Source: an uncultured Candidatus Saccharibacteria bacterium (GTDB lineage Bacteria > Patescibacteriota > Minisyncoccia > Sungbacterales > JACQCQ01). Taken from it: a DNA stretch of 16,160 nucleotides. Positions 3,485 to 13,927 of this stretch are shown here, piece after piece. The stretch is taken from assembly GCA_964428455.1 (NCBI GenBank), contig CAYRYI010000007.1:1-16160 (forward strand), given 5' to 3'. How positions within the stretch are numbered: position 1 is the stretch's first letter; every line of letters begins with the position of its first letter. Below the pieces are notes generated by a model. The model was not told the DNA's origin. It saw nothing but the letters and a program-made list of their open reading frames with translations, and did not search any database. Position numbers and translations under genes: made by a program.

Positions 3485-3508
3485 CCGAGAGTTATCTCTA
3501 AACAAAAA

Positions 3509-3538
3509 ACGTCCCGATGACTATCGGGACGTTTTTTG
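3509..3538. terminator. Bidirectional rho-independent terminator
   Basis: ACGTCCCGAT-GACT-ATCGGGACGT flanked by an A-run on the 5' side and TTTTTT on the 3' side. It terminates hup (+) and could also stop - strand read-through from the 562-aa gene. Confidence 0.8.
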
Positions 3539-3780
3539 ATTCGGCCGGTCTTCGTTATAGCGCAGTTTTTCCAGAAACGCCCGGCCAAGATCAATTTTCC
3601 GCAAATCGGAAAATATTAGGATCATCCATAAGGCATCGGCTGTGTTGTAAAGATACCCCAACGAGTAAGACTGACCGAAGTGGGCTTAAACGCTAACTTT
3701 TCGGATGAGTCAAGTCTAAAAAATAGGTTCGATTCCTTCAGACATTCCTTCTCGCGAAATGCTATATTCCGCTGGTTTTA

Positions 3781-5469
3781 CTAGTAATAAATTCCCCGAG
3801 TTATCTCAAGAGCGAATGGCTCATCTTTGTTCCCAAGGAATAGCGCATCCTTTTTGAGTGTTAGTTCATGCAAAAAGTCCGGAGTCAGTTTTCTGTCATT
3901 TAGTTTTTCCAATACTTCGTCATAGAGAGTTTTAATCTCCTGCAAATGCTTCATCTCAATTTCATTCAATTCTACGTCAGACCCAGGCACTCGTCCTGTT
4001 TGCAACATCTCAACAATAAGAGGATACCGCCAAGTTTCTTTATCGATTTGAAATTCACTTCGGTCAGCTCTCTGATAGATTTTCGTAATTAAATCTCGCG
4101 CAAAAACTCCGGGGCCTGAAGCGCCCTCGCCCCAGGGATTGAAATGAGCCCAATCGAACGGCGCAAGAGGAATATAGTTATATCTGCGGACACCGGAAAT
4201 TTCATCCCGAACCTCCGGCCGTAATTGCGCATATCTAGTAATGGCTTCATCCATATACTCTTTGATAGCTAGGTGCTCTTCCCACCACTTTTCGCGGCGC
4301 TCGGCGATGATTCGGTCATTTTCCTGACGCTGCTGCTCTCTCCGCTGGCGTTCTTTCTCTAGCCCAACCCTATCCCGTTCTTCTCGGTCAGCTTTTTCCT
4401 TCTGCGCCTTCTGCTGTTTTTCCCGCTCTACCCTCTTTTTATCCTCCTGGGATTTAGTTATTGCATTAGGGATTGTAGTACCGCTAAAGAAGTCCTTGCA
4501 CAAACGCTTAAGCGTTTCAGTGGCCTCGTCGCCCAATAAGCCAGTTTCTGAATTTATCCGAGAAAAAATTTCATCTAAGGACCTAAGTCTTGCTTGTAAA
4601 GCATCTGCTGTTTTTTTATCTACCTTAGTTTCTCTGGCTATTTCTTCCAAAGCTTCGCCTACCGCAGCCATTCGGAGAGCAACGACTGAGTAAAAAGATT
4701 TTGACTCGGGATCTTTAGCTTCCGTTTTTATAATTTGTCTGAAAACATCTTGTGTTCTTGTGAATCCTCGGACAATTGACCCAACCCTATCAGCGAACTT
4801 TGTTAGGAAGGGATCGGTTGTACCGTATTTGCTGGCAAGATAAAAACCAATCCCATCAATGGCGCACTCCTTCAAGGTGGCATCTATAGCTTCTCGAGCG
4901 CGGTCTCGGTGCCGTGGCTCGATGGTATTCATCAATGAATCAATATCTGCCGCCCGTTTTTGAAGGAATCTCCCAGTTATATTCTCGAGAGACCAATCAA
5001 CCAAGTGCCCAACTTCATGAGGCCCAACCCAATCCACCAGCTTTTCTCTTTTCTGAATTTCTTTTAAATCGGTGCCCATTTCTATACTAATATGATCCGG
5101 CAAGGGGTGAACCCCGACTTGTAAACGTTGCTCGATTCTTAATGATTGCTTCAAGCCCATCCCAACCGAAACAGACCCAATTGCCGTGCCGTGTTCTGCT
5201 TCGGCAATTCCCGCAATATGATGCAAATCAACACCGCTTTCTTCCTGGTATAAATTCCGGAGATACTCTATTTTCGCGCTAACAACACCAAGAAGGTACT
5301 CTTTTCGTACCTCCTCAACAGCGGCGTTCTTGTTTTTCTCTTCTTCGATCTGAGTATTTGCTTCCTCGTAGTTCTCTGCTTCTCCAACCTCAACTTTGGA
5401 ACGAAGAATCTCAGCTTCTTCTCGAGCCTCTTTAAGCGAATATCTGCCCTCACCACCTTCTGGATTCAT
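3781..5469 (-). CDS. Large hypothetical protein with HExxH zinc-metallopeptidase motif and a highly charged coiled-coil segment
   Basis: 562-aa uninterrupted ORF. It has a HEVGHLVDW motif around residue 150 and a long E/K/R-rich heptad-like stretch (KRVEREKQQKAQKEKADREERDR...EQQRQENDR). Its AT-rich codon usage differs from the housekeeping block. TATACT lies 7 nt upstream of the ATG and there is no SD. Confidence 0.65.
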   Translation of the reverse strand: MNPEGGEGRYSLKEAREEAEILRSKVEVGEAENYEEANTQIEEEKNKNAAVEEVRKEYLLGVVSAKIEYLRNLYQEESGVDLHHIAGIAEAEHGTAIGSVSVGMGLKQSLRIEQRLQVGVHPLPDHISIEMGTDLKEIQKREKLVDWVGPHEVGHLVDWSLENITGRFLQKRAADIDSLMNTIEPRHRDRAREAIDATLKECAIDGIGFYLASKYGTTDPFLTKFADRVGSIVRGFTRTQDVFRQIIKTEAKDPESKSFYSVVALRMAAVGEALEEIARETKVDKKTADALQARLRSLDEIFSRINSETGLLGDEATETLKRLCKDFFSGTTIPNAITKSQEDKKRVEREKQQKAQKEKADREERDRVGLEKERQRREQQRQENDRIIAERREKWWEEHLAIKEYMDEAITRYAQLRPEVRDEISGVRRYNYIPLAPFDWAHFNPWGEGASGPGVFARDLITKIYQRADRSEFQIDKETWRYPLIVEMLQTGRVPGSDVELNEIEMKHLQEIKTLYDEVLEKLNDRKLTPDFLHELTLKKDALFLGNKDEPFALEITRGIYY

Positions 5470-5675
5470 ATGTTCAAGTATACCATCAGACTCTTCTGAC
5501 CTCTGAAAATAAATTCAGAATTCAGAACAGCGGACGAGTGAGCATCACTCGCCAGTGTTTAACGTGCCTTCGCACGGTGCTGTGGTCTCGCTCGCATGTT
5601 ATTCGGGAATGGCTAGTCCCTTACTTATCCATGCGAATCCCCACTTACGTCGGCACACGACGGCCCCCGCCGCGG

Positions 5676-6044
5676 CTACCTCCTCGACAGATGCTCGCGC
5701 TCACAAGGGTCCATATTGGTATGGCCCTCGAAGCAGCGCTCTGCATCAGTGAAGAGATCGCCCTCCGGATCCCACTGCTCGAATGGCAACTCATTCTCGC
5801 CGTTAGCGTCAAAGACTATGAGTCCGACGCGAGGCGAGAAGTACCAAACGTGCTCGCGGGCATCCGTGCGGCTGGTGAAGACGTAGGCCTTGGTCATCCG
5901 GTACCATCTCTCCCCTTCGGGGGAATAGACGGTAACACACGGAATGCCGAGTTCATCACAGCGCTTGAAAAACGCCGTGGTTTCCTCGTCATTGACCTCG
6001 CCCATACGCCGGAGCGACTCCAGCCGTTGGCGGATCTCGTCCAT
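5676..6044 (-). CDS. Hypothetical small acidic protein (122 aa)
   Basis: Perfect SD AAAGGAGG 7 nt upstream of the ATG. It is third in a same-strand run of three small ORFs. Confidence 0.55.
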   Translation of the reverse strand: MDEIRQRLESLRRMGEVNDEETTAFFKRCDELGIPCVTVYSPEGERWYRMTKAYVFTSRTDAREHVWYFSPRVGLIVFDANGENELPFEQWDPEGDLFTDAERCFEGHTNMDPCEREHLSRR

Positions 6045-6097
6045 GGCACACCTCCTTTCGTTTTCCCGGTTGCCAGCCGAGAAGTTTCGTAAGTGAG

Positions 6098-6319
6098 TTA
6101 GGGTGCGCGCTCTACGATCACCGTAGTGACGTAGTACGCGTGACGCGCGATTCCATTCATCCAGCTCGTCTCCGTCCGATAATCCATAGTGCCATGGAGC
6201 GCGAGACTGGTAGAGGCGGATACAACTCGCCAGCCCTTGCCGAGCTCCTGAAGACGATTCTCGAGCTCGTCCTCCGGCGTGAAGTTAAGCGATCTTACGA
6301 TGATAACCTTCTGTTTCAT
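6098..6319 (-). CDS. Hypothetical small protein (73 aa)
   Basis: SD AAAGGAGA, 7-nt spacer, ATG. N-terminus MKQKVIIVRSLNFTPEDELENRLQELGKGW. Confidence 0.5.
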   Translation of the reverse strand: MKQKVIIVRSLNFTPEDELENRLQELGKGWRVVSASTSLALHGTMDYRTETSWMNGIARHAYYVTTVIVERAP

Positions 6320-6356
6320 CGCGGTCTCCTTTCTTCCGCCGTTAGCGGAAATTTAA

Positions 6357-6509
6357 TCAGTCTGGGATGGAACCGAGTAGTGTATTCAACTCCTGATATG
6401 CTACTTCCATGGCCCTCTTCGCCAGCTCGATCTCTCCACGCTTCAATGCCGACTTCGCGCCCGCGAGAAGAACACCGATCTCTGCGAGTAGAACCTGATC
6501 GACTTCCAT
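6357..6509 (-). CDS. Hypothetical 50-aa helical peptide (below the 60-aa ORF-track threshold)
   Basis: AAGGAGA SD 7 nt upstream of an ATG. Translation is MEVDQVLLAEIGVLLAGAKSALKRGEIELAKRAMEVAYQELNTLLGSIPD*. It lies directly upstream of the 73-aa ORF. Confidence 0.4.
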   Translation of the reverse strand: MEVDQVLLAEIGVLLAGAKSALKRGEIELAKRAMEVAYQELNTLLGSIPD

Positions 6510-6536
6510 TTCTTGATCTCCTTAATTTTCAAGTGA

Positions 6537-6603
6537 AAGAACACGAGCGATTAATTTCGCTCTTCTGAATCTTCAAAACAGGAAAACTCGGAAGAGCGGC
6601 AGA
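6537..6603. repeat. Structured repeat family, copy A
   Basis: AAGAACACGAGCG-ATTAATTTC-GCTCTTCTGA-[22 nt]-GGAAGAGCGGC. Read on the - strand it is hairpin, then a GAGCG..CGCTC hairpin, then a U-rich tract, ending 25 nt before the SD of the 50-aa ORF. Confidence 0.6.
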
Positions 6604-6872
6604 CGATGTTCTGTTCGTCCGCCCTTTTGTGGGGCAGTTTTTTACGCTACGGGAGTTGGCCCAGGTCCTTCGACCGACCCCGTGCTGGAGGAGCGAACTG
6701 GAACTTTTCGCTCACAGCCGGGATCTTCCCGCCGCAACCTTCGGGCTAAGGATTACTTCGCCCTAATTAAGCCCGATCCAGATAATCGCCCCCTTTCAAT
6801 TCGGTTGTTATTAGGAACCCTGCGAGCGACCCCATCCTTACTCCGCCGGATGGCGGATTCGGACGGGCAAGC

Positions 6873-6929
6873 ATTTCGCTCTTCCGGGGGGCCGTTCTTA
6901 AAATTCGGCCCTCCAGAAGAGCGGGCGAG
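6873..6929. repeat. Structured repeat family, copy D
   Basis: ATTTCGCTCTTCC-[GGGGGGCCGttcttaaaattCGGCCCTCC]-AGAAGAGCGGGCGAG. Same outer stem as B and C, but a different inner hairpin. Confidence 0.55.
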
Positions 6930-6997
6930 TTTTATAAATGGGACCTCGATCGTGCCGCCTAAGCAGGCTCGCGAGGTATCGCCCCCCAATATAGATA

Positions 6998-7084
6998 AAG
7001 AACACGAGCGCAAGGCGCTCTTCTGACATCCGCATTTTGGTTGCGGAGTTTAGAAGAGCGGGCGAATGAGTCTTCTTATTCGCC
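6998..7084. repeat. Structured repeat family, copy B
   Basis: AAGAACACGAGCG...GCTCTTCTGA-[CATCCGCAttttggtTGCGGAG]-TTTAGAAGAGCGGGCGAATGAGTC, plus a second hairpin GGCGAAT...ATTCGCC. Positions 7016-7073 are identical to 8156-8213. Confidence 0.7.
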
Positions 7085-7239
7085 GCGGATTTTGTTGAAG
7101 CGGTTCCGTATAACCGCTCGAGATGGCAGCGGGGTGGAGGGACTCGCAGACCTTCTGTTGCCACGCCGTTCTCACGGCGCCGGATATCCAAGGTTAGTTG
7201 CTCTCCTCGGACTCCAGTAGGCCACTGAATCGCAGCGAT

Positions 7240-7497
7240 TCAGTCCAAGACTATCTGCCTTGGTGCGGGGTTGGGTTCTTCAACCCAAACCATGCAATAG
7301 CCGCCGTGTTGCAATTTGCATTGCAACCACCAGCGCCGCGGCACCACGCCAGAAGCCTCGACCTCCTCGACGCAATACCGGTTGACCGTGTAAAGAGCGG
7401 GATATTGCTCCCACCATTTACGCGCATCTTCCAGTACTTGCTCCGACTGGAGGAGCACGAGAGACAAATCGTCTCTCTGCATACAGAAGCGGTACAT
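7240..7497 (-). CDS. Hypothetical Trp/Cys-rich small protein (85 aa)
   Basis: SD TAAGGGGGTGAGTT directly before the ATG, the same context as the 84-aa ORF at 8058. An overlapping + strand ORF (7198-7788) has no such signal. Confidence 0.45.
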   Translation of the reverse strand: MYRFCMQRDDLSLVLLQSEQVLEDARKWWEQYPALYTVNRYCVEEVEASGVVPRRWWLQCKLQHGGYCMVWVEEPNPAPRQIVLD

Positions 7498-7803
7498 AAC
7501 TCACCCCCTTATTTGATTATTCCTCTCGAGTACCATCCCAGACGCGCCCTCGCGCGTGCTCGGCAGTCGCTCGGAGTACATTCACTCCTCGTTTGTAAAG
7601 ATCCCGCCGAAATTCTCAAAACTTTTGAGATCTTCGGTAGGAGGTCGAGATTTTATTTCGCTCGACCGATGGAGAGCTTTACCGTTTCTATGGCTCTCCT
7701 AGCCTGTTTCGGCTTTTCAGCCGCTCCGACATTGCGCTGGAGTTTTTCGTCGGACACCGCAGGCTCCGACTATCCGATACCTGACTAGTCTGGGACCTAG
7801 TCA

Positions 7804-8058
7804 TCATCGGCTGGGCTCGCGGCGCTTGCCGCGAGGGGGCCACTTCTCCGCTGTCGCGAGGATCTCGCGAGCGAAGAAATAATCCCCTATGTGTTCCGGA
7901 CGATCCGGCGGGATACGAACTCCGCGCGGATGACGGACCACGATGCCCTCTTTCCAACACCGATGGCCGTAGCCGGGAACAACCTTGCGCCATCGGTTCG
8001 GGAACTCCCCATCGCTGAGCGATGAGGTGTCCACAAGGACGTACCGGGGCTCTTTCAC
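7804..8058 (-). CDS. Hypothetical small basic protein (84 aa, GTG start)
   Basis: AAAGGGGGTGAAAAG-GTG. It is preceded on the - strand by repeat copy C. Confidence 0.4.
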   Translation of the reverse strand: MKEPRYVLVDTSSLSDGEFPNRWRKVVPGYGHRCWKEGIVVRHPRGVRIPPDRPEHIGDYFFAREILATAEKWPPRGKRREPSR

Positions 8059-8093
8059 CTTTTCACCCCCTTTTTTTGGTTATTTTTCATTAA

Positions 8094-8224
8094 GAACTTC
8101 GAGCGATTCCCTCTTTCATCCCGACAATTCGGGATTTCGGAGGGGGTAAGTATTTCGCTCTTCTGACATCCGCATTTTGGTTGCGGAGTTTAGAAGAGCG
8201 GGCGAATGAGTCCTCCCACTCGCC
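8094..8224. repeat. Structured repeat family, copy C (extended, carrying extra inserted hairpins)
   Basis: GAACTTCGAGCGATT-[CCCTC...CCCGACAATTCGGG...GAGGGGG insert]-ATTTCGCTCTTCTGA...AGAAGAGCGGGCGAATGAGTC, then a GGCGA..TCGCC hairpin. The 58-bp core is identical to copy B. Confidence 0.7.
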
Positions 8225-8261
8225 ACCCTTGGCATCGTCCCGGACATCTCCGGAATCGCGC

Positions 8262-8657
8262 CTAACGCCGTGGACACGGCGGAATGGCTATATCTCGCCA
8301 CTCACGAGTTTGATTGCGGTTGGAGTGAAGTTCCCATACCGGTTTCCCATAAGAGCGCCCCAACTCGCCCTGATGGTATCCGCCTGCTTGGCGGACCCGG
8401 TTCCCTATGCCCCGCGCTCTATCTAGCGCGGCCTCGATGTGGGACGTGCACGCGGCCTTGGCCACGGCTCGTTCAACCACACCCCCTCTCCGCCCTTTGC
8501 AATGGCGGCGGCTTCGGCATAGGTTTCTCTGGTACGGCGCCCGCGCGAGCGCCAGGGCGATGGTAGCTAGCCGCCGCTCCAGAGATCCTGCGCCCCCGAC
8601 GCTGCGAAAGGGCCGACAGGAGGATAGAGGTAAAACTACGTTATCAATGTTCGACAT
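8262..8657 (-). other. GC-rich (~65%) transcribed block immediately downstream of a consensus - strand promoter. It is either a leaderless 131-aa Arg/Gly/Ala-rich ORF or, more likely, a structured non-coding RNA
   Basis: TTGACA-16-TATAAT is positioned so that transcription would start at or near the ATG at 8657. The putative protein is low-complexity and no alternative frame is convincing. Confidence 0.3.
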
Positions 8658-8662
8658 CGTGC

Positions 8663-8690
8663 ATTATACTCGCCTGCAGAATTTTGTCAA
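8663..8690 (-). promoter_or_regulatory. Near-consensus sigma70 promoter on - strand (TTGACA-16-TATAAT)
   Basis: Reverse complement of 8685-8690 is TTGACA and of 8663-8668 is TATAAT. It sits in an AT-rich hub and is divergent from the + strand promoter at 8829. Confidence 0.6.
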
Positions 8691-8828
8691 GTCCATTTGA
8701 CACTTTATGATACGATAAATAGGTTTATTTGGCTTAAATACTTGCTAAATAAGATAATAGATGTTTATATGTGTTAACAGTTATCGGCATACTAAAATAA
8801 AGACAATAAATTGTTTTGTCCTTACCTA

Positions 8829-8857
8829 TTGACAAATATTTAGCTACGGACTATACT
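8829..8857 (+). promoter_or_regulatory. Near-consensus sigma70 promoter on + strand (TTGACA-17-TATACT)
   Basis: -35 at 8829-8834 and -10 at 8852-8857. It is followed by a GC-rich structured region ending at a strong terminator. Confidence 0.6.
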
Positions 8858-8863
8858 TGAGTT

Positions 8864-9207
8864 GCTCTTCAAAATCGCCTTTTCCGCGGGCAGGAATGCC
8901 CGCATAGGCCCATGAACCCTTACCCGGGGGCGCTCTGCCACCGGTATCGCTCCCGGAGGGGGTGAGATCATGCTCGACGGTTAACCAGCTGACCGTCGAC
9001 TGGCGGGGCCTAAGCCCCGCCAGGGGAATGGCTGGGATACCCGAGAAGAAAGGAGGAAAAGGGGATGTTCGACGGATAGTTCTCGTTTTCGCGGCGCGAC
9101 CTAGACGGCTGCGCCGGGCGGCGACAGCAAGTCGCCGTCGAAGGAAGTCCTTCATCGGAAAGGGCCCGGTTCGCGCATTGCGCGGCCGGGCCCTCATAAT
9201 TTTTATT
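8864..9207 (+). ncRNA. Candidate ~340-nt structured ncRNA of unassigned family
   Basis: Promoter to terminator with no credible ORF. It contains many GC hairpins (GCGGGCA-GGAA-TGCCCGC, CGGGGCC-TAA-GCCCCG, GACGGTtaaccagcTGACCGTC, GGCGAC-agcaa-GTCGCC). The terminal hairpin GGGCCCGGttCGCGC-ATT-GCGCGgCCGGGCCC at 9162-9193 is followed by a T-rich tract. Confidence 0.4.
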
Positions 9208-9218
9208 CGAGTTAAATC

Positions 9219-9968
9219 CTAGACGTGATCTGCGCCAAGCCAAGCTAGTTCAAAGACTAGGCGCATTGTATTTGCTATTTCCGGTTCTTCTATAATAGCC
9301 GTCATCGACTGACCGCGCAGCGTTGTAAGTGCAACCCTGGAACTATAAATTGATATGTCGGCTGAAAACGGAAACTTATCTTTCGGCACGAAACGTCTTT
9401 CTCCCGAGCTTACAAATCCCCCAAAAGGCCCATCGGCGCTTGTATAAATGGCTCTGATTTTAATTCCGAGTTCATCTCTCTTTTTAATAAATGCTTTGGT
9501 TTGTTCTAGCGGAAACAAATTTTTAACCTCATCGAAAGAATAAATTGCCAGAACTTCTTTCGCCCCAGATGAGAGAAGGTCTTCTCTGACGGCCTCTCTT
9601 CCTTCCGACCCTTCAAAGAATCTTACCCGCGGCCTGTCTCGCGAACCGGAAAATAACGCGTCCAGTTCCGGTAATATCTTTGAAAATTCATTTTCTTTTG
9701 TCCTTATTTCCTCTTCCTGCGTTCTGAATATTCTAAGCAAAACGCTCGGATTTTCCGCAGCGAATAAGATTTTGTTTTTCTTTTCAACCGTACTTACGAC
9801 CCCGCGCCTTTTGAGCGTTTCGAGGACGACATAAGTCGTCGCCCGATTGACTTTGGCCTTTGCGGCAATATCCTGAACTGCCGCGCTCCCCAATTCCAAG
9901 AGCGCGAGATAAACTCGCGCCTCTTTATCCGAAAATCCCAATTTCTTCAGCTCAAGCTCAAGCGGCAT
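9219..9968 (-). CDS. TrmB-family HTH transcriptional regulator
   Basis: N-terminal winged HTH EARVYLALLELGSAAVQDIAAKAKVNRATTYVVLETLKRRGVV, typical of TrmB. 249 aa, with a C-terminal sensing domain. Confidence 0.75.
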   Translation of the reverse strand: MPLELELKKLGFSDKEARVYLALLELGSAAVQDIAAKAKVNRATTYVVLETLKRRGVVSTVEKKNKILFAAENPSVLLRIFRTQEEEIRTKENEFSKILPELDALFSGSRDRPRVRFFEGSEGREAVREDLLSSGAKEVLAIYSFDEVKNLFPLEQTKAFIKKRDELGIKIRAIYTSADGPFGGFVSSGERRFVPKDKFPFSADISIYSSRVALTTLRGQSMTAIIEEPEIANTMRLVFELAWLGADHV

Positions 9969-10062: not shown

Positions 10063-10275
10063 TTAGGCGCTGTCCCAGTCGTTTTGAGTAACCCCGGCTT
10101 GCCGAAGTATTTCAGAAACGAGGTGTTTCGAAATATCTCCGCGGTGCGGATTCGGTATGCGGATTTTCAGATCGTTGTTTGCCATGAATAAATGCCGGCC
10201 GCCCGAATAGGGGCCGTCAAATCCCAAGCGGCGCAATTTCTGAACCAGTTTCCGCCACGAAACGTTTCTAGGCAT
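10063..10275 (-). CDS. hicA: HicA-family mRNA interferase toxin
   Basis: 70 aa. Its pattern matches HicA/YcfA (WRKLVQKLRRLGF...GGRHLFMA...IRIPNPHRGDISKHLVSEILRQAGV). It overlaps upstream hicB by 8 nt. Confidence 0.8.
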   Translation of the reverse strand: MPRNVSWRKLVQKLRRLGFDGPYSGGRHLFMANNDLKIRIPNPHRGDISKHLVSEILRQAGVTQNDWDSA

Positions 10276-10513
10276 TTCTTACCAGTTGCCGGCGATCAAC
10301 TTTAAATTCAAAACCCGGCACTTTTTCTCGCGCCCGCACCTTAAGAAAAATCCAGTCCTCTAAAACTTCTCGAAGTTCCGCCCGGCAACTTTCAAGACTT
10401 TTTGTGTTTGCCCAAACCCCCTTTAGTCCCGGTATCTCGCCAAAATACGTGCGATCTTTCAAAAGCTTGTACTTGGCTCCTTTAAGCTTTTTATCGATGA
10501 ATTCACTAAGCAT
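10268..10513 (-). CDS. hicB: HicB-family antitoxin
   Basis: 81 aa. YFGEIPGLKGVWANTKSLESCRAELREVLEDWI matches the HicB/UPF0150 fold. It is paired with hicA. Confidence 0.7.
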   Translation of the reverse strand: MLSEFIDKKLKGAKYKLLKDRTYFGEIPGLKGVWANTKSLESCRAELREVLEDWIFLKVRAREKVPGFEFKVDRRQLVRNA

Positions 10514-12822: not shown

Positions 12823-13212
12823 CTAGACGCCGCGCTGGTCCCAAACGGCGTTTTCGATATGGTCAATATGCTTGACTTTGAGCTCGCTGTCGAGGGTTAC
12901 GGAAATCACATCTATCTGCCATTCAACATCAGGATCAATTCTCTCTCTCACAAGATAGAGCTCGCACAACCCCTGCAGACGCCTGCGCTTTCGCCTGTCC
13001 ACCCGCTCCTCGGGACTGAATGCCTCCCTATGTGTCTCTATGCTGGTTTTTACCTCAACAAAATAGAGCTTTCCGCGCCTTTTCGCAACAATATCCAACT
13101 CCCCCATCGGCATCTCGTAGTTTTGGGCGACAACCGAGTAGCCCTTTGACTTAAGATGTTCCACGGCGGCCCTCTCCCCCGCCAGACCGATTTCCAAGTT
13201 TTTCAGAGCCAT
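12823..13212 (-). CDS. yraN: YraN-family (UPF0102) endonuclease
   Basis: GERAAVEHLKSKGYSVVAQNYEMPMGELDIVAKRRGKLYFVEVKT is the canonical YraN signature. 129 aa. Confidence 0.8.
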   Translation of the reverse strand: MALKNLEIGLAGERAAVEHLKSKGYSVVAQNYEMPMGELDIVAKRRGKLYFVEVKTSIETHREAFSPEERVDRRKRRRLQGLCELYLVRERIDPDVEWQIDVISVTLDSELKVKHIDHIENAVWDQRGV

Positions 13213-13334: not shown

Positions 13335-13748
13335 ATGAGTAATAAGTCAGAATTTTACAGAGCGGTCAGAGATGAAACTTATCGTACCAGAGAAGAGATA
13401 CGAGATAGAATAACCGATGAATACATCCTCGGGTTATTCGAGGGAGAAGGCTGTTTTGGGAACATGCGTGACGGCAGAGGAAACCAGGTGCCAGCGTTCA
13501 TGCTAAAGATGCATGTACGAGATAAGGAGCTTATTGAGGGCATAAGGGATTATTTAGGAGTGCCCGACAGAGTCTACGAATATAAGCACGGCGGTAGGCA
13601 TTATGCCCTACTTCAGATCAGAGACATTGGGACACTGAAAAATAAGATCGTACCAATCTTTCATACCAAGCTTCTTGGTCATAAAGGTACACAGTTGGAG
13701 GCGTGGTTAAAAAAATATCCGTACCTTAGGGGTCTACATCAAAAGTGA
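13335..13748 (+). CDS. Free-standing single-motif LAGLIDADG homing endonuclease (I-CreI-like size)
   Basis: 137 aa. ILGLFEGEGCF is the LAGLIDADG motif and ...KIVPIFHTKLLGHKGTQLEAWL is the typical C-terminal region. The gene is strongly AT-rich relative to its neighbours and is not embedded in any recognisable intron or intein. Confidence 0.75.
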   Translation: MSNKSEFYRAVRDETYRTREEIRDRITDEYILGLFEGEGCFGNMRDGRGNQVPAFMLKMHVRDKELIEGIRDYLGVPDRVYEYKHGGRHYALLQIRDIGTLKNKIVPIFHTKLLGHKGTQLEAWLKKYPYLRGLHQK

Positions 13749-13821: not shown

Positions 13822-13900
13822 ATATGTCCTATATAAATAGAGCTGGGAAGTGGGTAACGAAGGGATCGAACCTTCGGCCTCTGTCGTGTGAAGACAGCGC

Positions 13901-13927
13901 TCTGCTTCACCCTCCCACCTTTTTAGT
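13901..13927. repeat. Inverted repeat arm (partner at 14171-14191) forming a ~20-bp helix in the - strand transcript
   Basis: The + strand sequence ACTAAAGGTGGGAGGGTAAGC at 14171-14191 is the reverse complement of CACCCTCCCACCTTTTTAGT at 13908-13927, with small bulges. Confidence 0.6.

Follow-up and report, generated by a model that had tools for sequence, protein, structure and literature searches.

What is the role of the hairpin-forming repeats that lie between the very small genes of a swap-prone array in a groundwater Parcubacterium? The repeats were found in a 16,160-nt stretch of contig CAYRYI010000007.1, analyzed here at its full length and called the window. To our knowledge, almost nothing is known about gene control in bacteria of the Candidate Phyla Radiation (CPR), which are ultra-small and mostly uncultured symbionts. 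We describe the repeats as a two-hairpin, strongly structure-conserved junction element, not described before, that is neither a terminator nor an integron site and most likely acts in the RNA transcript.

The pattern CGCTCTTC-N25-31-GAAGAGCG was found four times on the plus strand, at 6558-6598, 6877-6923, 7016-7060, and 8156-8200. An HMM and a covariance model, both built from related units, retrieved the same four copies and a degenerate fifth (5464-5557, minus strand), with nothing comparable in the rest of the 16-kb window. All five belong, as units, to the minus strand, on which the genes lie, and are confined to 5.4-8.3 kb. The copies and models confirmed what a first-pass annotation had proposed, namely a modular family of structured repeats with a conserved outer stem and swappable inner hairpins. 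The long identical core that it had seen in two copies corresponds to copies C and D, which have in common a 69-nt stretch at 94% identity with an identical run of ~57 nt. Each complete unit starts with a hairpin, P0, that directly abuts a second hairpin, P1, of 17-20 bp (CGCUCUUC...GAAGAGCG). The 3' arm of P1 is also one partner of a short hairpin, P3. A conserved NGUUCYUU motif lies 3' of P3, after a gap of 2 to 5 nt and ~30-45 nt ahead of the next start codon.

In the direction of transcription, unit D (8088-8224) comes first, with P0 at 8224-8201, P1 at 8200-8156, a covariance model score of 53.5 bits, and a z of -5.6. It carries GAGCGAAAU followed by a 42-nt inserted hairpin, the 3' arm of P3 (8106-8100), the motif AGUUCUUA (8098-8091), and a GTG start codon at 8058. 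Unit C (6993-7084; P0 7084-7061, P1 7060-7016, 73.3 bits) has GAGCGC/GCGCUC as P3 and the motif UGUUCUUU at 7004-6997, and no ORF after it. Strains L005, L014, and L016 have identical flanks here and an inner hairpin in which 9 of 29 nt are different; a DGR-type origin of this hypervariability was rejected, as the substitutions show no specificity for adenine and there is no reverse transcriptase. Unit B (6808-6948; 37.6 bits) has a weak P0, P1 at 6923-6877, a 43-nt inserted hairpin, the 3' arm of P3 at 6829-6823, and the motif GGUUCCUA at 6819-6812. Unit A (6534-6624) scores highest of the five (82.3 bits), with P0 at 6623-6598, P1 at 6598-6558, P3 formed by GAGCGA/UCGCUC, the motif UGUUCUUU again at 6544-6537, and an ATG at 6509. 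The degenerate unit E (5489-5553; 29.1 bits) retains P0 (GGCGAGUGA/UCACUCGUC) and P1 (CGCUGUUC...GAAGAGUC), lacks P3 and the motif, and lies upstream of a 562-aa gene; the module formed by its P0 and the 5' arm of P1 (X) follows a 122-aa gene in L039 and L057 and precedes a 563-aa gene in L054. The irregular spacing of the units (137-1140 nt) and the protein genes under purifying selection between them rule out a CRISPR array, in line with the first reading of the locus. TIGR arrays, suggested by the literature on Parcubacteria repeats, were rejected too, since the units are long hairpins separated by protein genes.

Several details of that reading had to be amended. The interior of copy A, taken as unstructured, forms GAGUUUUC/GAAGAUUC with G.U pairs on the minus strand. 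The pairing of CGAGCG with CGCTC holds and covaries in three sequence families; its restriction to three copies does not, since copy B has the CGAGCG element at 6823-6829 of the plus strand, behind the 43-nt inserted hairpin, so that all four copies are complete. Copy A is indeed immediately 5' of a small ORF, as had been said of both A and C, but C is followed by copy B, and the copies directly 5' of ORFs with Shine-Dalgarno (SD) sequences are A and D. A weaker fifth relative had been placed at 7645-7705, where only the common GAGCGAAAT and some hairpins are found and which both HMM and covariance model miss at E≤1. The outer pairing AGAACA/TGTTCT, presented as a general feature, is present in A-type units only. 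Treated as a pseudoknot or outer helix between the GAAC of the P0 loop and the GUUC of the motif, it was limited to the A, E5, and G types and, showing no covariation, was discarded.

The array is preceded by a sigma-70 promoter (8663-8690, minus strand; TTGACA-16-TATAAT, 12 of 12 consensus matches), which is conserved in L010 and L054 and has the form TTGACA-17-TATAAT at the same relative place in L056. Between it and the first unit there is a structured leader of ~430 nt (8226-8656, minus strand), with a minimum free energy of -199.7 kcal/mol (z = -3.68) that none of 100 shuffles equaled, and three pairs changed on both sides among three ~93%-identical sequences. The leader is non-coding, because its relatives carry 1-nt indels; those of L010 and L054 rule out a leaderless 131-aa ORF at 8262-8657. 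Downstream, and all on the minus strand, come an 84-aa gene of no known family (7804-8058, SD AGGGGG), a hairpin-rich intergenic stretch with GAGCGAAAU and GAUCUUUAC and no recognizable unit (7498-7803, containing 7645-7705), and an 85-aa gene (7240-7497, SD AAGGGGG). The spacer from unit B to unit A (6625-6807), conserved also in L046 and L054, has an SD-like GGGGG and no ORF and is perhaps the remnant of a cassette. Three further genes, of 50 aa (6357-6509), 73 aa (6098-6319), and 122 aa (5676-6044), follow one another from 6509 to 5676 without units between them, so the module is not obligatory. For the 73-aa and 122-aa genes dN/dS was 0.08-0.24; the 0.46-0.48 obtained for the 50-aa gene is uninformative, its substitutions being too few. 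The last gene of the array, the 562-aa gene (3781-5469, minus strand; dN/dS 0.34), has a lower G+C and no assigned function, and a bidirectional terminator at 3500-3541 comes after it.

The structure of the units is strongly conserved. In an ungapped, anchor-based MAFFT alignment of 18 distinct units, 93.1% of the P1 cells were paired, compared to 75.8% in shuffles, and none of the 500 shuffles reached the observed value; 10 of the 17 pairs were changed on both sides, the covariation score was 0.503 versus 0.162, and slid controls were only 37-53% paired. Thus, the compensatory changes that the first-pass annotation had advised looking for with a covariance model are abundant. The length of P1 stays at 17-20 bp despite the differences in sequence. 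P0, a hairpin of 8-11 bp with many compensatory variants (mean z = -3.4), ends 0±1 nt before P1 in ~19 of 22 units. The complementarity of P3 follows three unrelated P1 arm sequences (GAGCGA/UCGCUC, CAGGAGAA/UUUUUCUG, and GGGUG/UGCCC), and the mutual exclusion of P3 and P1 is kept with covariation, P1 (-19 to -34 kcal/mol) being far more stable than the 5-7 bp of P3 and prevailing in predictions. Between the P1 arms, which are 25-33 nt apart, the interior is selected for pairing and not for sequence, while the arms themselves are conserved beyond the needs of pairing.

Different indicators agree that the folding strand is the sense strand, as had been proposed from the direction of the neighboring ORFs. 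The ratio of G.U to A.C pairs is 18:9, or 16:2 outside one conserved C.A position; P0 and P1 are more stable in sense than in antisense in 17 of 25 units; and the covariance model gives 70-89 bits to the sense strand and ~30 bits to the antisense. All units are in gene orientation, and the distance from the end of P3 to the SD-preceded start codon is 29-65 nt, mostly 30-36 nt.

Outside the window, related units came only from small-gene arrays that resemble this one, in other Parcubacteria and in one Saccharibacteria genome, always in gene orientation, and the HMM and covariance model scan found no match in the control locus L059 and 33 unrelated loci. Scanning 185,579 GTDB species genomes for exact patterns produced 12 single matches, one of them true (L026) and ~11 chance-like, close to the nine or so that we estimated for chance. 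In JGI metagenomes the same kind of scan had 26 matches, and L033, L039, L046, L054, and L055 were the five real ones; two exact-pattern scans of IMG/VR viral contigs gave one chance match in coding DNA and then zero, so that no phage link emerged from the patterns tested. Rfam 15, searched at permissive thresholds with the whole window and with 5400-9260 (units, leader, and a plus-strand RNA candidate), had no family match near its gathering score; within 5400-9260 at E≤10, the matches were all low-scoring, those over units D and B reaching 19 and 17.5 bits. This agrees with the initial view that the repeats fit no known family. It does not agree with the riboswitch that had been suggested, for which the variable inner hairpin also leaves no conserved ligand pocket. 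The architecture is kept across two CPR lineages in spite of a full sequence turnover of the stems, and in the Saccharibacteria array one unit of Parcubacteria type is found among units of another sequence type. The locus offers a structured element with strong covariation, missing from Rfam and present in both Parcubacteria and Saccharibacteria.

The motif 3' of P3 resembles BoxA. In E. coli BoxA reads UGCUCUUU and in phage lambda CGCUCUUA, to which the unit motifs UGUUCUUU and AGUUCCUU are comparable, and as in nut sites and rRNA leaders (BoxB plus BoxA) a hairpin stands beside an 8-nt core, N-G-Y-U-C-Y-U-N, predicted to be single stranded. In those systems the core is bound by NusB-NusE. 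NGUUCYUU fits both the consensus GYTCTTTAANA, which is gammaproteobacterial and may not be that of the host (PMC5725501), and the requirement of the 8-nt core for G2, C5, and Y6 (U/C6) (PMC3177189). NusB-NusE has a contiguous double-stranded RNA site beside BoxA (PMC3177189). There is precedent for BoxA less than 50 nt upstream of start codons, in untranslated stretches of long transcripts as predicted for the units (PMC5725501), and for BoxA ahead of long untranslated CRISPR arrays, where its role would be the one we propose for the units (PMC7665894). The motif is kept where both stems have fully diverged (L056, L057:69-160, and E1, E3, and E4 of the Saccharibacteria locus L026). The motif is a candidate Nus-factor site. 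Its full core was counted in ~17 of ~28 units (~60%, from a tally of the printed motifs), with G2 in all and C5 in most; the remaining units deviate at positions 6 to 8, some reading AGUUCCAA, AGUUCAUU, or AGUACAUU. Over the whole window the BoxA consensus was not enriched (32 matches with ≤2 mismatches, 26.7 expected). The motif is unpaired in the predicted folds of whole units A and D and often paired with the translation-initiation region in folds of 3' fragments. Considered as an anti-Shine-Dalgarno sequence that had evolved together with the ribosome site beside it, the pyrimidine motif paired no better with its own site than with permuted ones (P = 0.86), which removes one possible RNA-level role. 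No rRNA signatures were found in the 470 kb of sequence examined. The LAGLIDADG homologues are neighbors of UPF0102 and not rRNA-intron genes.

The explanation that we consider best, and somewhat probable, is that the repeats are cis-acting RNA junction modules, serving antitermination, RNA processing, or both, whose arms are also recombination hot spots. The promoter at 8690-8663 would drive the 430-nt leader and then the string of small protein genes as one long transcript, which at most gene junctions would fold into the abutting P0 and P1. P0 would form the end of the upstream segment, and P1 would take its 5' arm from the upstream segment and its 3' arm from the downstream one. P3, which is expected to form only when the 3' arm of P1 is free, might load Nus-type elongation factors together with the BoxA-like part, and RNA polymerase would thereby continue through the long untranslated hairpin-rich junctions. 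P0 and P1 may also insulate or process neighboring cistrons, P1 having in all units roughly two helical turns as in RNase III substrates: once the ~20-bp P1 was cut, as by RNase III, the upstream RNA would keep P0 as its 3' cap, and P3 could form on the downstream RNA and cap the 5' end. The P1 arms, conserved in sequence, would incidentally act as short homologies by which cassettes and inner hairpins are swapped between units and strains. The locus is a testable candidate for control of the Nus/BoxA or RNase III type in CPR protein-coding operons and, if the RNA modules are real, repeated regulatory RNA sequences would drive cassette exchange as a by-product.

Known RNA elements resemble the units in part. 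The intercistronic RNase III sites of phage T7 are related hairpins of ~20 bp with an internal mismatch, on a polycistronic transcript from a strong promoter, and by analogy the flanking hairpins of the units could remain as protective ends; the units differ in belonging to a chromosomal CPR array and in adding P0, P3, and the motif, and their cleavage is only predicted. The put RNA of phage HK022 consists of two adjacent stem-loops, together ~70 nt long, which work in cis on the polymerase that transcribes them. The units are likened to it by the architecture of their twin adjacent stem-loops, whereas put occurs once per operon just past the promoter. A nut site or rRNA leader element, likewise, is found once or twice per operon and not at most gene junctions, and the units add to it the P0-P1 twin hairpin, which sequesters a second BoxA-like octamer, CGCUCUUC. 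To have one BoxA for each gene, and not a single one for the operon, is unusual and counts against the RNA module, as does the fact that structure-specific processing leaves the sequence conservation of X and of the 3' arm (X') within a lineage unexplained; this could instead be due to concerted evolution or to a protein that recognizes the sequence in DNA or RNA.

The exchange of cassettes between relatives is visible at the same chromosomal place (TrmB ... HU/YmdB), where the arrays of close relatives hold different genes. Junctions fall inside the P1 arms, at X (8192/6928 versus L054; 5523-5525 versus L039, L057, and L046) and at X' (6887 versus L046), with gene conversion-like patches as well. 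The same P0+X or X'+gene module appears with different partners (G_L046 versus N_L039; E_win versus K_L057), and dS was 0.06 for unit A plus the 50-aa gene and 0.67 for the neighboring 73-aa gene. Each hairpin is assembled from two neighboring blocks, and the cassette boundary runs through its middle. Such hypervariability in small genes that are under purifying selection, with reshuffling between near-identical strains at the repeat arms, is of interest in itself. The suggestion of recombination sites survives in this weaker form, the conserved arms being where cassettes were exchanged, and fails for classical attC.

A stronger form, in which the units are DNA recombination sites of an integron-analogous system, is possible but unlikely. 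The hairpin would fold in single-stranded DNA, and a dedicated recombinase encoded elsewhere would cut the arms and insert or excise cassettes behind the fixed promoter and leader, giving an integron-like cassette system without an integron integrase. It would explain the different genes at the same place, the junctions within conserved arms, the modules with varying partners, the contrast in dS, the Parcubacteria-type unit in the Saccharibacteria array, and the conservation of the arms beyond pairing. The likeness extends to the layout, since in integrons too a fixed promoter is followed by small promoterless ORFs in one orientation with variable gene content, and attC sites, also in CALIN arrays, are likewise imperfectly palindromic, with stems that hold conserved bases around a variable center. 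However, attC folds on the bottom strand and the G.U bias of the units points to the sense strand; no recombinase, tyrosine recombinase included, was found among the window ORFs or the called genes of any 7-19 kb related locus (IntI is missing from CALINs as well); and there is no RYYYAAC/GTTRRRY pair in 5400-8300, as the first-pass annotation had noted. Over the window, the core search gave four matches (two loci, both strands) against 2.2±2.1 in shuffled sequence, none at a unit. Exchange took place at either arm and with conversion-like patches, as in homology-driven exchange, and not by a single crossover with the whole attC at the 3' end of the cassette. Furthermore, the first unit directly follows the leader and not a gene, a DNA site would have no use for the fixed-distance motif or for covariation of P3 with the 3' arm of P1, and the adjacent leader has RNA-type covariation too. 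A further view seems to us rather improbable: the locus would be a CPR gene-cassette platform, hitherto unrecognized, whose arms are recombined by a dedicated non-integron enzyme, the element being both DNA site and RNA module, with each cassette starting with a 3' arm and ending with P0 and a 5' arm behind a fixed promoter and leader.

That the units are attenuators or intrinsic terminators, where P3 and a U-rich tract stop transcription unless P1 forms as antiterminator and expression is graded, is very unlikely. A scan did flag GAGCGAAATTAATCGCTC+GTGTTCTTTC in unit A and GAGCGCCTTGCGCTC+GTGTTCTTTA in unit C as terminator-like, and the conserved P1/P3 exclusion would suit such a switch, but P1 is transcribed before P3 and, with the stabilities given above, always wins in predictions. 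In E5, K, J, F, and L056, P3 is followed by sequence that is not rich in U (AAAGUUCCAAAAC, AAGUUCCGGCUC, AAAGUUCAUUAC), contrary to the terminator described at first for each copy, terminator-like structures are not above shuffled sequence (6 in the region versus 3.9±1.8), and no switching sensor is evident.

We give very little credence to the view that the units are selfish miniature elements of the MITE, REP/BIME, BOX, or Correia type, spreading through intergenic DNA with no host function. Correia/NEMIS elements of Neisseria, REP/BIME and ERIC of enterobacteria, and pneumococcal BOX are hairpin repeats that, transcribed together with neighboring genes, can influence how mRNA is processed and how stable it is. 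The units are likewise modular, hairpin-forming, intergenic, and repeated, with inner modules swapped among copies, but those families are genome-wide, in both orientations, and mobile or selfish, whereas the units, which had also been compared to a small mobile element, are restricted to arrays in the window and the loci scanned, run in the direction of the genes, and keep a fixed distance to start codons. The single true match in the GTDB scan, with the others near the chance estimate, the lack of terminal inverted repeats with target duplications and of a transposase or RAYT nearby, and the persistence of the architecture in two CPR lineages with stems fully turned over speak against this origin as well. 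Equally hard to credit are decaying, functionless duplications or operators of a regulator that binds DNA, for instance the neighboring TrmB-family protein, whose gene is the conserved upstream neighbor in the window, L010, L054, and L056, since, even with arms that are inverted repeats of fixed sequence, the arm spacing varies, the interior is selected for pairing, the units lie 0.5-3 kb downstream of the promoter in the transcribed region, and neither the compensatory changes nor 93% pairing is expected under decay.

Among the products of the array, the small ORFs had no match in Pfam, PHROGs, or PADLOC, and the 122-aa protein had only seven homologues, with 77-96% identity. The small genes include zinc-ribbon-like and membrane proteins.

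The contig, from Rifle aquifer groundwater, belongs to a CPR bacterium annotated at NCBI as Parcubacteria group bacterium GW2011_GWB1_52_7 / GWA1_51_12. The array of small genes is bordered on one side by housekeeping genes (RNase Y, YmdB, and HU) and on the other by a TrmB-family regulator, HicAB, a DUF4015 protein, and tRNAs. Between 3781 and 8058 all genes lie on the minus strand, each with a strong Shine-Dalgarno (SD) sequence, and none had a match in Pfam, PHROGs, or PADLOC. Those of 73, 122, and 562 aa are under purifying selection (dN/dS of 0.08 to 0.34 against relatives). The promoter upstream of the array (8690-8663) matches the consensus at 12/12 positions and is followed by a 430-nt leader whose folding beats all shuffles (z = -3.68); in relatives, this leader shows compensatory pairs and 1-nt indels that break the frame.

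The repeat family noticed in the first-pass annotation is real. The pattern CGCTCTTC-N25-31-GAAGAGCG occurs in four copies, at plus-strand positions 6558-6598 (unit A), 6877-6923 (B), 7016-7060 (C), and 8156-8200 (D), with 94% identity between units C and D across 69 nt. Searches with a profile HMM and a covariance model, both derived from related units, returned just these four and a degenerate fifth (unit E, 5464-5557), all on the minus strand; the rest of the window, a control Parcubacteria locus, and 33 unrelated loci gave nothing comparable. Neither model picked up the weaker relative proposed at 7645-7705, whose likeness to the units is limited to GAGCGAAAU and some hairpins.

On the gene strand, every unit has the same order of parts: P0, P1, AAAU, P3, an NGUUCYUU motif, SD, and start codon. 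P0 is a hairpin of 8 to 11 bp ending 0±1 nt ahead of P1, a hairpin of 17 to 20 bp with CGCUCUUC/GAAGAGCG as its outer 8 bp, a C.A mismatch at position 9 in many units, and a variable inner part. AAAU comes 3' of P1. P3 (GAGCGAA...UUCGCUC) takes in the terminal bases of the P1 3' arm, which makes P1 and P3 mutually exclusive. The motif is found 2 to 5 nt 3' of P3, and the next gene, with its SD, comes after it; the start codon of that gene lies 29 to 65 nt (mostly 30 to 36) beyond the end of P3. In units B and D, the P3 loop contains a further hairpin of ca. 42 nt, because of which the 3' half of unit B had been overlooked; the inner segment of unit A, described as unstructured, pairs on the gene strand through G.U pairs.

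Among the matches of exact-pattern scans, the true relatives were from a single Saccharibacteria genome (L026) and JGI metagenome contigs L033, L039, L046, L054, and L055, to which protein-guided look-ups added L056 and L057, for a total of ca. 28 distinct units. Two pattern scans of viral contigs gave no relatives. In L026 (MAG CAYJUX010000005.1, 5240-6870), each gene of an array of small membrane-protein genes has ahead of it a twin-hairpin unit, with another type of sequence (CUCCCACC.../...GGCGGGAG followed by GGGAAGUUCCUUGA); behind these genes come a 60-aa ORF rich in cysteine and a single Parcubacteria-type unit.

The structure of the units is under selection. P1 was assessed on a MAFFT alignment of 18 distinct units, ungapped around the anchors and thus not fitted to structure. 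Standard pairs made up 93.1%, compared to 75.8% in column shuffles (the observed value was reached in 0/500), and the covariation score was 0.503 versus 0.162; slid registers gave 37 to 53% pairing. Compensatory change, which the first-pass annotation had proposed looking for, was found on both sides of 10 of the 17 P1 pairs, in 58 cells. P0 sequences come in at least ten versions, all of which keep pairing (e.g., GGCGAGU/AUUCGCC, AGUGAGU/AUUCACU, GGCGAGA/UCUCGCC, and GCGAACG/CGUUCGC). Units with wholly different stems in L056, L057:69-160, and elsewhere in L026 (CUCCUGUC/GACAGGAG, CCCACCAAA/UUUGGUGGG, and CUCCCACC/GGCGGGAG) keep the architecture, i.e., abutting hairpins, a P3 that pairs with the new 3' arm, and AGUUC, with folding z-scores of -4 to -5.7. 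Even between strains that are almost identical, 9/29 positions of the unit C inner hairpin differ, and pairing is retained.

Several features bear on whether RNA or DNA folds. G.U pairs outnumber A.C oppositions 18:9 and, as seven of the nine A.C cases fall at the single conserved C.A position, 16:2 elsewhere. The gene strand gives the more stable P0 plus P1 in 17 of 25 units and scores 70 to 89 bits with the covariance model, against ca. 30 bits for the opposite strand. All units are oriented like the genes, at a fixed distance from start codons. Taking strand, position, promoter, and leader together, we favor an RNA element within one long transcript.

Relatives have the promoter, leader, and chromosomal position in common and differ in their genes, with breakpoints within the P1 arms. 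At window 8192/6928, P0 and the P1 5' arm of unit D are fused to the inner hairpin of unit B in L054 and L046; at 5523-5525, L039, L057, and L046 have the same parts of unit E fused to other inner hairpins and other genes; and at 6887, the P1 3' arm of unit B and its downstream part are fused to a foreign P0, 5' arm, and inner hairpin in L046. The exchangeable block therefore runs from a P1 3' arm to the following P0 and P1 5' arm, and by sequence comparison a hairpin is re-formed at each junction. Unit A with orf50, the 50-aa gene (6357-6624), has 97% identity to its L054 and L046 counterparts (dS of ca. 0.06), next to a dS of ca. 0.67 for the neighboring 73-aa gene orf73 (6098-6319), which points to recent cassette-scale exchange between lineages. 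In L026, one Parcubacteria-type unit sits amid units of another type. Such mobility might be taken to mean that the units are DNA sites for cassette recombination, a reading we regard as unlikely; junctions at both arms and patch-like replacement of inner hairpins fit homology-driven recombination at conserved arms, although a dedicated recombinase may conceivably take part. The likeness to attC sites suggested earlier is superficial and the units are not members: RYYYAAC/GTTRRRY cores are absent, the wrong strand folds, no integrase lies within reach, and exchange occurs at two places. Elsewhere, 12 SNPs clustered in the AT-rich divergent promoter region (8676-8783) split otherwise almost identical strains into two haplotypes, which suggests a recombined patch, and strain L001 lacks exactly 75 nt (window 8227-8301) that adjoin the unit D P0 foot on its upstream side.

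The 3' motif is the sole primary sequence kept through complete stem turnover. It reads UGUUCUUU in units A, C, G, M, and N, AGUUCUUU or AGUUCUUC in R, I, and L057:69, AGUUCUUA in unit D, and AGUUCCUU in I_L046 and three Saccharibacteria units. It broadly fits the gammaproteobacterial BoxA consensus GYTCTTTAANA of Nus-factor targets lying ≤50 nt from start codons (PMC5725501) and also the 8-nt core of the NusB-NusE-BoxA structure, where G2, C5, and U/C6 are critical and a dsRNA site is contiguous with BoxA (PMC3177189), an arrangement that would suit P3. BoxA-dependent antitermination acts on the long untranslated arrays of CRISPR loci (PMC7665894). Around 40% of the units deviate from this core, and the BoxA consensus is not enriched across the window. 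A role as anti-SD co-adapted to its own gene was tested and rejected.

On balance, we consider it probable that the units function in cis at the RNA level, presumably as junction modules of a polycistronic RNA, with antitermination and processing deserving roughly equal weight. P3 and the BoxA-like motif would recruit elongation factors, allowing polymerase to read through the long untranslated, hairpin-rich junctions, and the role of P0/P1 would be to insulate cistrons or to process them. If an RNase III-type enzyme cut the ca. 20-bp P1, P0 would remain as a 3' cap, and the P1 3' arm would be released to form P3 instead, a 5' cap ca. 4 nt from the new end; this refolding would explain the bases shared by P1 and P3 and their co-variation. 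The units would work like known intercistronic signals such as nut or rRNA-leader signals and T7 RNase III sites, belonging to none of them, and no known RNA family matched them. Attenuation or termination, read earlier from a U-rich tract behind each copy, is improbable: such a tail follows P3 in only some units, and P1 out-competes P3. A selfish repeat is very doubtful, as copies are confined to arrays, share one orientation, and keep a set position with respect to start codons; functionless duplication or an operator is equally hard to credit. This family, real, structurally selected, and apparently new to description, is linked to a hypervariable small-gene array of CPR bacteria.

Facing away from the array, a near-consensus plus-strand promoter (TTGACA-17-TATACT, 8829-8857) precedes a G+C-rich sequence of ca. 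330 nt with a terminator-like hairpin, GGGCCCGG...CCGGGCCC plus UCAUAAUUUUUAUU, at its far end (8829-9205 with the promoter). This sequence matched no Rfam family, is kept in L054 with 13 two-sided compensatory pairs, and has at its 5' end the BoxA-like UGCUCUUCAAAAU (UGUUCUUCA in L010 and L054); it probably gives rise to a small or medium-sized RNA of a new kind, whose control region is shared with the array. Upstream of the TrmB gene is a HicA/HicB toxin-antitoxin pair (10063-10513); in the place of HicA, some related assemblies (e.g., L003 and L004) have a different 59-aa gene called on the opposite strand and others no called gene. A free-standing LAGLIDADG endonuclease ORF (13335-13748, plus strand) adjoins a UPF0102/YraN-like nuclease gene (12823-13212, minus strand), and the pair is kept in Parcubacteria contigs L059 to L061, so the former is not an rRNA-intron gene. 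Beside tRNA-Val, tRNA-like fragments are repeated (13850-13883/13984-14017 and 14085-14120/14137-14172), with a marginal 62-nt tRNA match at 13851-13912, and may represent tRNA pseudogenes or a split tRNA.
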